From a virus (lineage: Duplodnaviria > Heunggongvirae > Uroviricota > Caudoviricetes): a stretch of 44,644 bases of DNA. Made by a program: the position numbers and the translations under genes. The stretch is from IMG/VR virus record IMGVR_UViG_2568526230_000009. The stretch is one strand, 5' to 3'. Below, one piece after another: positions 15,077 through 32,180 of this stretch (position 1 is its first letter; the number at the start of each line of letters is the position of its first letter). The notes beneath the pieces were generated by a model. The model saw nothing but the letters and a program-made list of their open reading frames with translations. It was not told the DNA's origin and did no database searches.

Positions 15077-16650
15077 CAGTTACCTCCCCAGCCGTTATCG
15101 TTGGTATTTGAGGGGTGAGATACAGACCATGACGGTTCGCTCAGCCCCATTTCACGCCGGCGCTGAATTTCGTATTCCTGCTGCTCCATAACCTCCTCGT
15201 AATCCTGTCCCTGCAGCGCCAGTTCGTTCTGATACGTGCTGAGGCCAGTTGTGATGCGCATGGCGCTCTCCTGAACCTCTTTCAGCCCATCAATCGCCAT
15301 GCGACCAGCGCCGATCCAGAGCGCGTTCGTCCAGGAGTTCCGCGCCTCATAAAACGACCGGACAGCTGAGCGTGGCAGGGTGATAATTCCGCGTGCCAGC
15401 GCCTCTTCAAACCAGCAGCAGAACATCAGCGACGCCTGTCGCGCGGCGATAAAACGTCGACGCCCCATGAAAAATCGCCAGCTGACGTTAGCACTGGCCC
15501 GGGCGCTGGAGTAACTGACCTGGCTGTAGTCCCGGCTAAGTTCTTCGTATGACGCGCCAACGCCAGCTGCAACGTAACGCAGGAGTGATTTTTCCAGTGA
15601 ACTAAAACCAGCATCAGCATTCTGAGCGGTCTGTAAACTGAGTTTGTCGCCGGGATGCAGGTGGGGAACTTTCACACCACCGAGCTTGATATTTGCGCCG
15701 TTGTAGTACGTCACGTAACTCTGAATAAACGAATTCAGCGGGTTCGAGTCGATATCAGTACCCGCGCCGGCGATATATTCAAACGCCTGCTGGCTGTCGA
15801 GCTCTGATTCGATTGTCGCGGCATACATCGCCTTCACAATGGCGCTCTGCAGTTGTGTTTGCTGCAGTGTGTCGAGCATTTTCAGGCGCTCCATGACGCT
15901 GTAAAAAATATTGTCCCCGCGGGTCTGTCCGTCCTCGAGCGGCTCGAATATGTGGATGAATGCGTGTCTGCCGCTGCTGAGCTGTGCTGGGATACGCCGG
16001 CATTTACCGACTCCGCCGAGAGGGTAAGTATCCTCGGCTATCCAGTACCCGACCGCGGCCCCGTTTTTATCGATATCAACACCGGCGCGGCGAAATTGAG
16101 TGTCAGCTGCGTAACCCGGATTTCGAATCCGTTTCGGTGAGACCATTTTGAATCGCGTCCGAAAAACGCTGCCGGCACTACTCTCCCAGACTGGTTGTAC
16201 GCAGGTTTCACCGTTGAAAGCGTGAGTAGCCACGCCCTCGCGGATCATCATTGTGAACGTCCGTTTCCGCTCGATATCAATCGTGCAGTGAGGGTCCTCG
16301 GCGTATTCAGTCCACGCTACCTCGACGTCACGCGCCAGCGCCCTGGCGTCCTCGCGAGATATGCCGAGGTAACGCCAGTTAGGGCGATAACTCAACTTAA
16401 ACAGATTGCCGACGATATGATCCTGGTGCAGCTGCACGGCGTTCGACGCGACGCCGTTATTGCGAACGAGATCGTCTGCTCGCGCGTTACCGCGATAAAA
16501 ATTCGGCAACAGTGCTGCGTCGGCGCTCTGCTGTGGTGCGTTCCAGTCAATCAGCTGGCCACCGAAACCGGGACCGCCGCCGTTATACCCCGCGTAACGG
16601 CGTAGTGGCGTTTTACCGTCAGGCCCGAGCAGCTGCTGCGGAGCAGTCAT
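15076..16650 (-). CDS. Portal protein (lambda gpB-like)
   Basis: 524 aa directly downstream of terminase/W. Confidence 0.75.
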   Translation of the reverse strand: MTAPQQLLGPDGKTPLRRYAGYNGGGPGFGGQLIDWNAPQQSADAALLPNFYRGNARADDLVRNNGVASNAVQLHQDHIVGNLFKLSYRPNWRYLGISREDARALARDVEVAWTEYAEDPHCTIDIERKRTFTMMIREGVATHAFNGETCVQPVWESSAGSVFRTRFKMVSPKRIRNPGYAADTQFRRAGVDIDKNGAAVGYWIAEDTYPLGGVGKCRRIPAQLSSGRHAFIHIFEPLEDGQTRGDNIFYSVMERLKMLDTLQQTQLQSAIVKAMYAATIESELDSQQAFEYIAGAGTDIDSNPLNSFIQSYVTYYNGANIKLGGVKVPHLHPGDKLSLQTAQNADAGFSSLEKSLLRYVAAGVGASYEELSRDYSQVSYSSARASANVSWRFFMGRRRFIAARQASLMFCCWFEEALARGIITLPRSAVRSFYEARNSWTNALWIGAGRMAIDGLKEVQESAMRITTGLSTYQNELALQGQDYEEVMEQQEYEIQRRREMGLSEPSWSVSHPSNTNDNGWGGN

Positions 16651-30245: not shown

Positions 30246-31169
30246 ATGAGATTAAAATACTCAGTACTCTTACTCGCCATTGCCCTTACAGGCTGTGATA
30301 ACAAAAAAGATGAGATCGGTTGTTCTTCGGAAATAACCCAGTCAGCTCTCATGGATTTATTAAAAAAATCTGCTTATGAAGGACTCTCTGAACAGGTCGA
30401 TAAATACCCTGATGTCACTAATCAGACCAAACGAAGCACACTGGACAAGATCAAACTAGCCATCTCTGAGATCTCCACAACATCAAGTGACACGGGCAGC
30501 ACAATGAAAACTTGTGAAGGGACCGTGACGATGACTCTATCTGCGAACGAGTACGTCCAGCTTTCAGATGCTTACAGAAAGAATTTTAATCGTAATCTCG
30601 ATAAGCAAATGGAAAGCCTGTTTTTGGAGAACAACGCAAACGCCTTTTCAAAACGTATCACCTACACCGTGCAGGCGACCGACGATCAGAAAAACGTTTT
30701 TGTAAAAACCTCTACTGATAATCCGATATCAGTGGGCGCCGCTTTACTGACATCGCTTTCCATTATCACCCCGATCGTTGAGCAGCAGAAAATCCAGCAG
30801 GCTAAGGATGCCCAACAGAGTCAAATTGAAGCGGAACAACAGGTGCAACTCAGGGCGCAAGAACAGGCTAAGTATGAGGCGGAGAAGCAAATAGAGAGAC
30901 AGGCACAACTTCAGCCGCAAAAAGCTGACAACCTTGATCAGTCCCGAATGGCATTTGCGAATGCCGACTCTGATTTGAGTACCGTCTGGAGCAAGTTAAC
31001 CCCGGCGAAGAAAAAAGATTTGCTGCCTTCTCAGCGTCAGTGGATCAAAACTAAGGATGCTATGTGCGGTAAAGTTTCAATGCAGGGAACAGATGCTGAA
31101 GTCAAGAAAATGGTCGACTGCCAGACGCAAATGACCCTTTCAAGAATCGCTTTCCTCAGAAACCAATAA
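30246..31169 (+). CDS. Lipoprotein with Gln-rich coiled coil and LprI/DUF1311-like C-terminal domain
   Basis: Lipobox LTGC; C-terminus PSQRQWIKTKDAMCGK...VDCQTQMTLSRIAFL. Confidence 0.6.
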   Translation: MRLKYSVLLLAIALTGCDNKKDEIGCSSEITQSALMDLLKKSAYEGLSEQVDKYPDVTNQTKRSTLDKIKLAISEISTTSSDTGSTMKTCEGTVTMTLSANEYVQLSDAYRKNFNRNLDKQMESLFLENNANAFSKRITYTVQATDDQKNVFVKTSTDNPISVGAALLTSLSIITPIVEQQKIQQAKDAQQSQIEAEQQVQLRAQEQAKYEAEKQIERQAQLQPQKADNLDQSRMAFANADSDLSTVWSKLTPAKKKDLLPSQRQWIKTKDAMCGKVSMQGTDAEVKKMVDCQTQMTLSRIAFLRNQ

Positions 31170-31183
31170 CTGAAGTCTCCTTC

Positions 31184-31217
31184 AAGCTGGCGCCAGGTGT
31201 TAACCTGGTGCCAGCTT
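31184..31217 (+). terminator. 15-bp stem-loop downstream of lipoprotein gene
   Basis: AAGCTGGCGCCAGGT-GTTA-ACCTGGTGCCAGCTT; no U-tract, so possibly a stability element. Confidence 0.35.
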
Positions 31218-31232
31218 AGTCATCAAGTGCAT

Positions 31233-31318
31233 ATGTAACTGTTTTATATGGGCGGTACTTTGACAGAGGTATTCGGTCTCGTGCTGGTCGTGGTCAAATA
31301 CCTTTTTAAGCGCAAATA
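31233..31318 (+). repeat. Direct repeat copy 2 (orphan 3-prime gene end)
   Basis: Would encode MGGTLTEVFGLVLVVVKYLFKRK* but lacks a gene body or SD. Confidence 0.8.
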
Positions 31319-31343
31319 GAGTATTTCCGCCCCAAACAACCTG

Positions 31344-32180
31344 TCAAAATGCTGAATTAGCAACGGATATAGCCGACTTTTTCCCCATTACCATCAATTT
31401 ATCCAGTGTCATACTTCGCAGATTGTCGCTGTGGATCACCAGATACCCTGCCCGCTCAGCGATCTCTTTGAAAGCGTCAAAGGTCATCAGATGTTCGCCT
31501 TTGGCAACATGGCGCATCCCGGTCACTTTTCCATTTTTGATAGTGGTGATAAAAGAAAAATCTGGAATGGTTGGGTGATTTTCATCGAGTAGCAGGCAGT
31601 GGATGTATTCAATCGCCTCTAACATTTGCGTCTGTGACAGTTGTTCTATGTGAGAGACGGCGAAGCGTTGATGAATCATGGTGTAGGCATCGGGATACAT
31701 CATGCCTTTCTTGCCGACCAGTATATTAACGGCATCACGCAAGGGAGTACGGTCATCGGTAGTTGTACTCCGCCTCTCTGGACGCTGGCTAAAATAACAA
31801 TCTTCCAGCTTTTCGAAAACTTCCCAGGCCTGTTCTGTTTCCAGCATTTTGGCATGGCGAGCTGCGCCGCGTTCTGTCCAGAGAATGAGGGATCGGGTAT
31901 GTTTAGCAACTGACTGACTATCTGTCAGTCTGTTTTTGAAGTCGCGTAATTCATTACCTTCCAGCTTAAAAAAATGCTTTCCTACGACAAATCTGGCGAT
32001 GTTGCGCTTGAAGTTTTGCTGGATACCATTTACTTCCGTGCCATACAAACTGGCAAGCAATTCAGTAGTGATGACGGGAAGTTGGTTATGATGTAGCGGA
32101 GAAAGGGATTCCGCAGATATTTGGACTGTCATCGCAGTGGCCTCACTTAGTGTTTTTTTCATCACCACCAGCGACGCCAA
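31344..32180 (-). CDS. Antirepressor-like protein
   Basis: 278 aa; N-terminal ORF6N-like segment (ITTELLASLYGTEVNGIQQNFKRNIARF); true start may be internal. Confidence 0.5.
   Translation of the reverse strand: MASLVVMKKTLSEATAMTVQISAESLSPLHHNQLPVITTELLASLYGTEVNGIQQNFKRNIARFVVGKHFFKLEGNELRDFKNRLTDSQSVAKHTRSLILWTERGAARHAKMLETEQAWEVFEKLEDCYFSQRPERRSTTTDDRTPLRDAVNILVGKKGMMYPDAYTMIHQRFAVSHIEQLSQTQMLEAIEYIHCLLLDENHPTIPDFSFITTIKNGKVTGMRHVAKGEHLMTFDAFKEIAERAGYLVIHSDNLRSMTLDKLMVMGKKSAISVANSAF

Follow-up and report, generated by a model that had tools for sequence, protein, structure and literature searches.

We analysed a 44,644-nucleotide stretch of viral DNA (Caudoviricetes; IMG/VR record IMGVR_UViG_2568526230_000009), hereafter called the window, and in particular a gene at positions 30246 to 31169 that encodes a lipoprotein with a C-terminal LprI (formerly DUF1311) domain. 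The window represents a lambdoid prophage that is inserted next to tRNA-Leu/Cys/Gly and pgsA-uvrC in Escherichia coli. Hundreds of complete genomes, many of type O25b:H4-ST131, share the 3.5 kb around the gene with 100% identity, and the gene itself is present in about 440 of the 5,426 complete E. coli genomes (about 8%, mostly ST131-type clinical isolates), always on the chromosome. It occupies an accessory stretch that is flanked by the replication genes on one side and by the DUF1367/Q region on the other. An earlier note, made from the letters of the window, had described it as lying on the opposite strand to the phage genes; this is correct for the immediate neighbours and for the late, replication, and Q genes, but the cI-like repressor and the integrase share its strand.

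The gene is an ATG-to-stop open reading frame (ORF) of 307 amino acids, the stop codon being included in its coordinates, and its product is identical to WP_001237642.1, which the Prokaryotic Genome Annotation Pipeline (PGAP) names 'lysozyme inhibitor LprI family protein'. A ribosome-binding site, AAAGGGAA (about 30234-30241), is found 5 nt upstream of the ATG and is invariant at 10 out of 10 aligned orthologous loci. Comparison with seven orthologues gave a ratio of nonsynonymous to synonymous substitution rates (dN/dS) of about 0.15-0.22 in all three regions of the protein, indicating purifying selection. Five cysteines are invariant in 19 orthologues: the lipid-carrying C17, C26 and C90 in the N-terminal domain, and C274 and C292 in the DUF1311 domain. 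These invariant residues, together with the low dN/dS in all three regions, argue that this is not a chance ORF. The features of the locus are collected in the table below.

Features of the lipoprotein gene and its surroundings in the window
Feature	Position	Strand	Basis
Upstream region of about 230 bp, co-transferred with the gene	30015..30245	+	blastn start points and 10-locus alignment
Coding sequence of the 307-aa lipoprotein	30246..31169	+	ORF, Pfam, database identity, dN/dS
Signal peptide and lipobox (LTG before C17), followed by D18-N19	30246..30296	+	Sequence; C17 invariant in 19 orthologues
Protospacer A (30246-30277) with protospacer-adjacent motif (PAM)	30246..30280	-	32/32 spacer match; CAT at 30278-30280 on the + strand, a 5'-ATG PAM on the - strand
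N-terminal alpha/beta domain (aa 18-178), without a Pfam model	30297..30779	+	
Protospacer B (30719-30750) with PAM	30719..30753	-	32/32 spacer match, followed by CAT, an ATG PAM on the - strand
Gln-rich helical spacer (aa 179-224), continuing the helix from aa 160	30780..30917	+	AlphaFold2 helix 160-222; Gln count; linker lengths
C-terminal DUF1311/LprI three-helix domain with the conserved pair C274/C292	30918..31166	+	Pfam match, aa 225-304
14-bp GC-rich stem-loop directly 3' of the stop codon, within the module	31185..31216	+	RNA fold -32.8 kcal/mol, z -5.4
Direct-repeat copy 2	31238..31318	+	89% identity to copy 1

The protein starts with a canonical lipoprotein signal peptide, MRLKYSVLLLAIALTG immediately before C17, which comprises M-R-L-K, a hydrophobic core, and the lipobox L-T-G-C17, and which ends in the pattern [LVI][ASTVI][GAS]C that we used to define a lipobox. 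The residue at position +2 is Asp (C17-D18-N19), and it is kept in all close orthologues except the Erwinia type (N-D). In Enterobacteriaceae, Asp at +2 is a Lol-avoidance signal that retains lipoproteins in the inner membrane. This residue therefore predicts that the window protein is anchored at the outer face of the inner membrane and not at the outer membrane, so that of the 'outer-envelope lipoprotein' proposed from the letters of the window, the lipoprotein part stands and the outer-envelope part is not supported. The PHROG profile of the family (phrog_5094) begins only at residue 36, and a truncated version of 259 aa (166 member sequences) bears the annotation hypothetical protein; the lipoprotein signal is therefore missing from many annotations.

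An AlphaFold2 model built on 19 orthologues (predicted local distance difference test score, pLDDT, 83) has four parts: a disordered signal, an alpha/beta domain (residues ~29-155), a single long helix (160-222), and a three-helix bundle (230-305). The Pfam family PF07007 (LprI) matched residues 225-304 with 30.8 bits against a gathering cut-off of 22 (E = 4.1e-7), confirming the DUF1311 assignment for which the earlier note had asked for a profile search, and in the model this domain adopts a helical-bundle fold like that of the DUF1311 crystal structure. Otherwise the Pfam scan at E <= 1 returned two unrelated sub-threshold matches and no MliC (PF09864), Ivy (PF08816), or PliG domain. The NCBIfam scan of the protein gave noise only, none of the PADLOC defence models matched it, and neither the full profile nor the C-terminal domain alone matched a PDB chain at the sequence level. 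The stretch between the two domains is rich in glutamine (18 Q in the 57 residues 179-235), as had been noted. However, orthologues differ in the length of this stretch (52 to 86 residues) and, by eye, it has few regularly spaced hydrophobic residues, for which reasons it suits a spacer better than the coiled coil first proposed. A straight helix of about 63 residues spans roughly 9 nm.

The N-terminal domain contains C26 and C90 and carries near-invariant motifs around T78/D82/S85 and Q143-x-T145-D146-D147, in which position 144 is Ala in the window protein and Pro in most family members. Close relatives of the whole protein (65-97% identity) are confined to Enterobacterales, and a profile of residues 18-178, searched against 1.84 billion representatives, detected at least 222 clusters (50% identity) at E <= 1e-3, in which the domain is nearly always N-terminal in proteins of about 300 aa. 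Among the 146 best distant representatives, 132 have a lipobox and 70 have a detectable LprI domain, the other partners being SH3b (8), TPR (3), cytochrome c (2), and YARHG (2). C26, C90, T78, D82, S85, and the stretch Q143-P-T-D-D147 are kept in at least 90% of these 146 proteins. No solved or viral structural relative was found for residues 18-178. This region is thus a widespread lipoprotein domain that has no name, no Pfam model, and no solved structural relative. In most distant members that carry DUF1311, the two cysteines of that domain lie ~18-23 residues apart. Since both N-domain cysteines are retained in members without DUF1311, the pattern of conservation points to one disulfide that is probably formed within each domain, rather than between domains. 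For the homologue ScwA, inter-domain disulfides (C30-C237 and C100-C259) were predicted (PMC7933661).

ScwA (SL1344_0490) of Salmonella Typhimurium is the nearest characterised homologue. It has 275 aa, is periplasmic, and carries an LprI domain at its C-terminus as well as four conserved cysteines (PMC7933661). It was not returned by a word-indexed search seeded with the Kluyvera homologue. We decoded ScwA peptides from the mutagenesis and tagging primers of PMC7933661 and recovered the gene by scanning metagenome contigs for exact matches to the published mutagenesis primer; the recovered scwA lies between copA and ybaP, as in that paper, and its peptide around C100 (LRTCSATV) is identical to that of Kluyvera and Erwinia family members. 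ScwA aligned with the window protein over both domains in BLASTP (E = 3e-10, about 21% identity), and hhalign of ScwA against the family profile gave a probability of 98.5% (E = 3.9e-15; residues 11-305 against 15-272 of ScwA). In these alignments C26, C90, C274, and C292 of the window protein correspond to C30, C100, C237, and C259 of ScwA. Judged by this sequence comparison, the window protein belongs with ScwA in a two-domain periplasmic family. In Salmonella, the level of ScwA correlates positively with that of the lytic transglycosylase MltD, while several other hydrolases shift, and prolonged overproduction of ScwA leads to cell lysis; the cysteines of ScwA are required (PMC7933661).

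Nucleotide similarity between the locus and other genomes is restricted to 30015-31218 (blastn), a unit of 1.2 kb that comprises ~230 bp of upstream sequence, the coding sequence, and the hairpin, with edges that vary little across loci (start 30015-30091, end 31175-31218). At 82-91% nucleotide identity and with unrelated flanks, this module is found in Citrobacter chromosomes, Yersinia rohdei, Leclercia and Enterobacter loci, Enterobacter prophages, and Klebsiella plasmids. In the great majority of the Citrobacter freundii contigs examined, it has a chromosomal position between a fec-type iron-uptake operon and an MFS/amn/ptsG region that is free of phage genes, and in Pantoea and other chromosomes it occupies unrelated sites. 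The Enterobacter prophages belong to a different lambdoid lineage and carry the module between DinI/DUF1367 and replication genes; such a prophage also has an Ivy (PF08816) gene near its antiterminator and terminase genes. In Klebsiella, the carriers are non-mobilizable IncFIB plasmids of about 110 kb (K. pneumoniae NZ_AP024574.1 and 13 others), in which the gene, with 85.6% protein identity, stands among mostly hypothetical genes. IMG/VR lists similar contigs of 87-111 kb as viral, and these plasmids may be phage-plasmids. In Yersinia and in IMG/VR contigs, more distant homologues (42-47% identity) adjoin baseplate genes of the P2/Mu-like type.

The module is therefore a discrete unit with the same boundaries in unrelated genomic backgrounds, as is expected of a moron. 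Its occurrence at non-phage Citrobacter loci, in other genera, and in several unrelated temperate elements bears out the earlier description of the gene as cargo, and this distribution indicates that temperate phages and plasmids acquired the module from enterobacterial chromosomes. DNA searches and tblastn detected no homologue in 50,697 deposited phage genomes, so that all the phage evidence comes from prophages, IMG/VR contigs, and plasmids. We found no conserved neighbour across Citrobacter, Pantoea, Proteus, Serratia, Kluyvera, Erwinia, and Morganella. In Morganella morganii, a homologue (46% identical) lies on the same strand 300 bp downstream of an alpha2-macroglobulin gene (yfhM-like) and pbpC, encoding penicillin-binding protein 1C (PBP1C). 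As this arrangement was seen in no other genus examined, we give it little weight.

The upstream part of the module contains conserved blocks, TTAAAG...TGCCGATA, which are visible even in Pantoea in the alignment of 10 loci. Inspection of these blocks by eye gave no convincing sigma-E, sigma-54, CpxR, PhoP, CRP, or Fur site, the upstream RNA fold was unremarkable (z -0.08), and Rfam detected nothing real in 29000-31400. The strong stem-loop that follows the gene was absent from the output of the terminator scan; as it has no U-tract, it does not qualify as a canonical intrinsic terminator.

The gene is matched perfectly by two spacers from type I-E CRISPR arrays of E. coli, and the orientation of both PAMs was set by the CRISPR repeat. 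Spacer A belongs to the iap-proximal array and occurs there in 119 complete E. coli genomes; spacer B, in the ygcE-queE array, occurs in 15. Another spacer of the iap-side array matches the major capsid gene of the prophage (29/32 at 15227-15261, followed by CAT, an ATG PAM), suggesting that this array sampled the phage family more than once. Two matches occurred in at most 3 genomes, in comparison with about 440 carriers of the gene; gene and spacer thus rarely if ever coexist, a pattern that phylogroup structure could explain.

The module forms part of a larger accessory segment. A repeat search identified an 81-nt direct repeat, 89% identical between its two copies, of which copy 1 (27816-27896) is the 3' end of ORF 27292-27897 and copy 2 (31238-31318) follows the lipoprotein module. 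The copies bracket 3.4 kb of cargo, namely a gene for a 232-aa protein, an AT-rich spacer, and the lipoprotein module. The content between the copies differs in related prophages, which suggests cassette exchange by recombination at the repeat. The 232-aa protein (28360-29058, minus strand) has a hydrophobic N-terminus by eye, lies in an island of 31% GC, and is a probable membrane protein. Its gene shows 82% DNA identity to a Z-region 'putative lysogenic protein' of P2-EC58. The protein gave no Pfam match, but PADLOC matched it weakly (E = 1.8e-5) to RTasTM, a DRT-associated membrane protein, and a role as an effector of the abortive-infection type is possible. Between this gene and the module there is about 1 kb of AT-rich DNA (29059-30014, 31-35% GC) without an annotated gene. 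All the promoter-like sites of our scan fall in this spacer (29111-29732), outside the module that is common to chromosomes. The accessory stretch also holds a gene for an ImmA/IrrE metallopeptidase (26794-27282, plus strand; Peptidase_M78, PADLOC capP-like, E = 2.4e-25) and its partner, the 201-aa ORF 27292-27897 (plus strand), which matched no family. This pair may be a protease-controlled regulatory or defence module.

Taking together the architecture, homology, cysteines, mobility, and selection described above, we tentatively favour the explanation that the gene encodes a lipid-tethered protein of the ScwA family, probably located in the inner membrane, that binds peptidoglycan-cleaving glycosidases, alters their abundance or activity, and thereby shifts the autolysin balance of the lysogen. 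After lipidation, the protein would stay in the inner membrane owing to Asp at +2, DsbA would form one disulfide in each domain, and the long helix would let the DUF1311 domain reach as far as about 9 nm out from the membrane, into the vicinity of the peptidoglycan. There it would bind glycosidase-type enzymes and change their abundance or activity, as ScwA does for MltD. Expression in the lysogen, from the strand of the repressor and independently of the lytic genes, would then alter the balance of hydrolases. In this explanation the protein would not act as an inhibitor of host lysozyme. Within it, we consider a link between DUF1311 and peptidoglycan glycosidases reasonable, because immunity proteins against periplasm-acting, wall-degrading effectors of type VI secretion systems (T6SS) include known or predicted DUF1311 proteins, and some envelope role tied to peptidoglycan hydrolases plausible.

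Several observations weigh against this explanation. Our promoter scan found no sigma-70 consensus within the conserved 230 bp upstream of the gene, so the case for expression in the lysogen is built on the orientation and autonomy of the module. The +2 residue varies in the wider family (G in 38, D in 35, S in 21, and N in 14 of the 132 members with a lipobox), and membrane location is thus not a conserved family trait. The transfer of function from ScwA is uncertain, given the ~21% identity and the lack in ScwA of the lipid anchor, the spacer, and the (Q)PTDD motif. Finally, the effect of ScwA on MltD may reflect either direct binding or an indirect influence.

A rival explanation is a role as an orphan immunity protein, in which DUF1311 would bind and neutralise incoming muramidase-type toxins in the periplasm and so protect the lysogen from competitors; the targets could be T6SS effectors resembling lysozyme or pesticin, or the lysins with which superinfecting phages pierce the wall. 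Orphan DUF1311/LprI proteins adjoin lysozyme-like T6SS effectors in the hcp islands of Pantoea. Psi15 has an LprI domain, and its gene adjoins that of the pesticin-domain effector Pse15, a pairing from which its immunity role was predicted; the pair gave T6SS1-dependent killing. In enterohaemorrhagic E. coli (EHEC), Etsi4 rescues the periplasmic toxicity of Etse4. In addition, at least four kinds of temperate or plasmid elements carry the gene, suggesting a benefit to the carrier, and the Morganella homologue lies just downstream of the alpha2-macroglobulin and PBP1C genes. However, we found no effector-like gene near the window gene or in the chromosomal, prophage, and plasmid contexts examined. 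Etsi4 also proved a poor match: as located in the Sakai genome, it comprises 149 aa and one domain, its LprI match is below threshold (18.7 bits), it has no significant pairwise similarity to the window protein, and it lacks the additional N-terminal domain, which in the 307-aa window protein is equally conserved. The dN/dS values of 0.1-0.3 show no sign of an arms race, and the protein matched none of the PADLOC defence models. We regard an immunity role as possible but doubtful. YafT, a lipoprotein encoded beside the EHEC T6SS island, was also compared and is unrelated to the window protein.

Alternatively, the function could be driven by the N-terminal domain and be unrelated to peptidoglycan hydrolases, DUF1311 being a generic helical module. 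Examples would be superinfection exclusion by masking an inner-membrane entry component, or the binding of a small ligand through the DPNS and QPTDD motifs. It is the N-terminal domain that defines the family, being fused to DUF1311 in 70 of the 146 best representatives and to other partners elsewhere, its polar motifs are nearly invariant in these distant proteins, and the search for solved or viral structural relatives of it was negative; moreover, phage lipoproteins that exclude other phages, such as Llp, Cor, and Ltp, are well known. Against this, the protein is also stably encoded on chromosomes outside any phage context, which argues that its function is not phage-specific, the SH3b partners point again to the cell wall, and the ligand idea derives from the motifs themselves. 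A function of this kind seems rather unlikely to us.

The reading proposed first for the gene, that it encodes a true inhibitor of vertebrate host lysozyme comparable to MliC/PliC/Ivy and renders the lysogen lysozyme-resistant, is very unlikely: the Pfam and PGAP names favour it, as do the occurrence of lysozyme inhibitors in prophages (for example, the Ivy gene in the related Enterobacter prophage) and the reported lysozyme inhibition by Mycobacterium tuberculosis LprI (cited in PMC7933661), but the window protein contains no MliC, Ivy, or PliG domain, the predicted inner-membrane anchor would put it behind the peptidoglycan, and deletion of scwA left the sensitivity to lysozyme/EDTA unchanged (PMC7933661). 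According to PMC7933661, M. tuberculosis LprI also carries an MliC domain that is sufficient for lysozyme resistance, and there is no experimental evidence that the PF07007/LprI domain itself inhibits lysozyme. A link between DUF1311 and host lysozyme is therefore not established, and the 'lysozyme inhibitor' name that PGAP and Pfam give to the window protein is misleading. Of the 'lysozyme-inhibitor-like domain' of the earlier note, the LprI/DUF1311 match holds and the inhibitor reading is weak, and lysozyme inhibition is a weak route to the envelope protection suggested there for the lysogen.

A bolder possibility, which we consider improbable, is that the gene encodes a membrane-tethered, ScwA-like, effector-less 'wall-guard' that temperate phages and phage-like plasmids of Enterobacterales have captured repeatedly and that disarms or retunes peptidoglycan glycosidases in the lysogen. 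If so, it would protect against muramidase weapons (T6SS effectors or the lysins of incoming phages) or reset MltD-type autolysins, working through a previously undescribed N-terminal domain together with DUF1311, and the two E. coli CRISPR spacers would reflect its long association with invading phages. Regardless of this, about 8% of complete E. coli genomes carry the gene under a functional name that is not backed by evidence, and its kinship with ScwA makes autolysin control and interbacterial or phage antagonism, in place of lysozyme assays, the subject for experiments. With copies in lambdoid and P2/Mu-like prophages, large Klebsiella plasmids, and chromosomes, the gene also illustrates cleanly how an envelope gene of the chromosome has become phage cargo. 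Its importance would rise if the protein were shown to guard its mobile carriers' hosts against muramidases, or if its N-terminal domain had a defined ligand.

In comparison with known systems, the module resembles morons and lysogenic-conversion lipoproteins such as lambda Bor, T5 Llp, and phi80 Cor in being a small autonomous envelope-lipoprotein unit that is inserted between phage modules and opposes the neighbouring phage genes. These proteins are unrelated to it in sequence, and the scans gave the module neither a clear promoter nor a U-tract terminator. M. tuberculosis LprI (Rv1541c), the source of the domain name, is likewise a lipoprotein with PF07007, but it has the MliC domain that the window protein lacks. 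The single-domain PF07007 proteins (Pseudomonas putida PP0307, PDB 3gi7; Etsi4; Psi15) share the helical bundle, the conserved cysteine pair, and the export to the periplasm; PP0307 and Etsi4, however, consist of one domain of about 100-150 aa, whereas the 307-aa window protein is tethered and has a second domain. T6SS immunity proteins differ further in that they adjoin an effector gene, a neighbour absent from the window gene. The closest parallel is ScwA, which has the same order of parts (a signal, an N-terminal domain with a cysteine pair, and DUF1311 with a cysteine pair) and is also a horizontally acquired stand-alone gene of similar composition (43.1% G+C in scwA, about 43-48% in the window gene). 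In contrast to the lipobox and Asp at +2 of the window protein, ScwA has an ordinary signal peptide (ending AVSYA/G) with no cysteine before C30 and is soluble. It also lacks the Gln-rich spacer of roughly 50 residues, has LADNN, a degenerate (Q)PTDD motif, where the window family has (A/P)TDD, and is encoded on the chromosome (copA-ybaP), whereas the window copy is on a prophage. The ScwA/DUF1311 periplasmic proteins are a known kind, of which the window gene encodes a member that travels as phage cargo, a finding that should not greatly surprise specialists.

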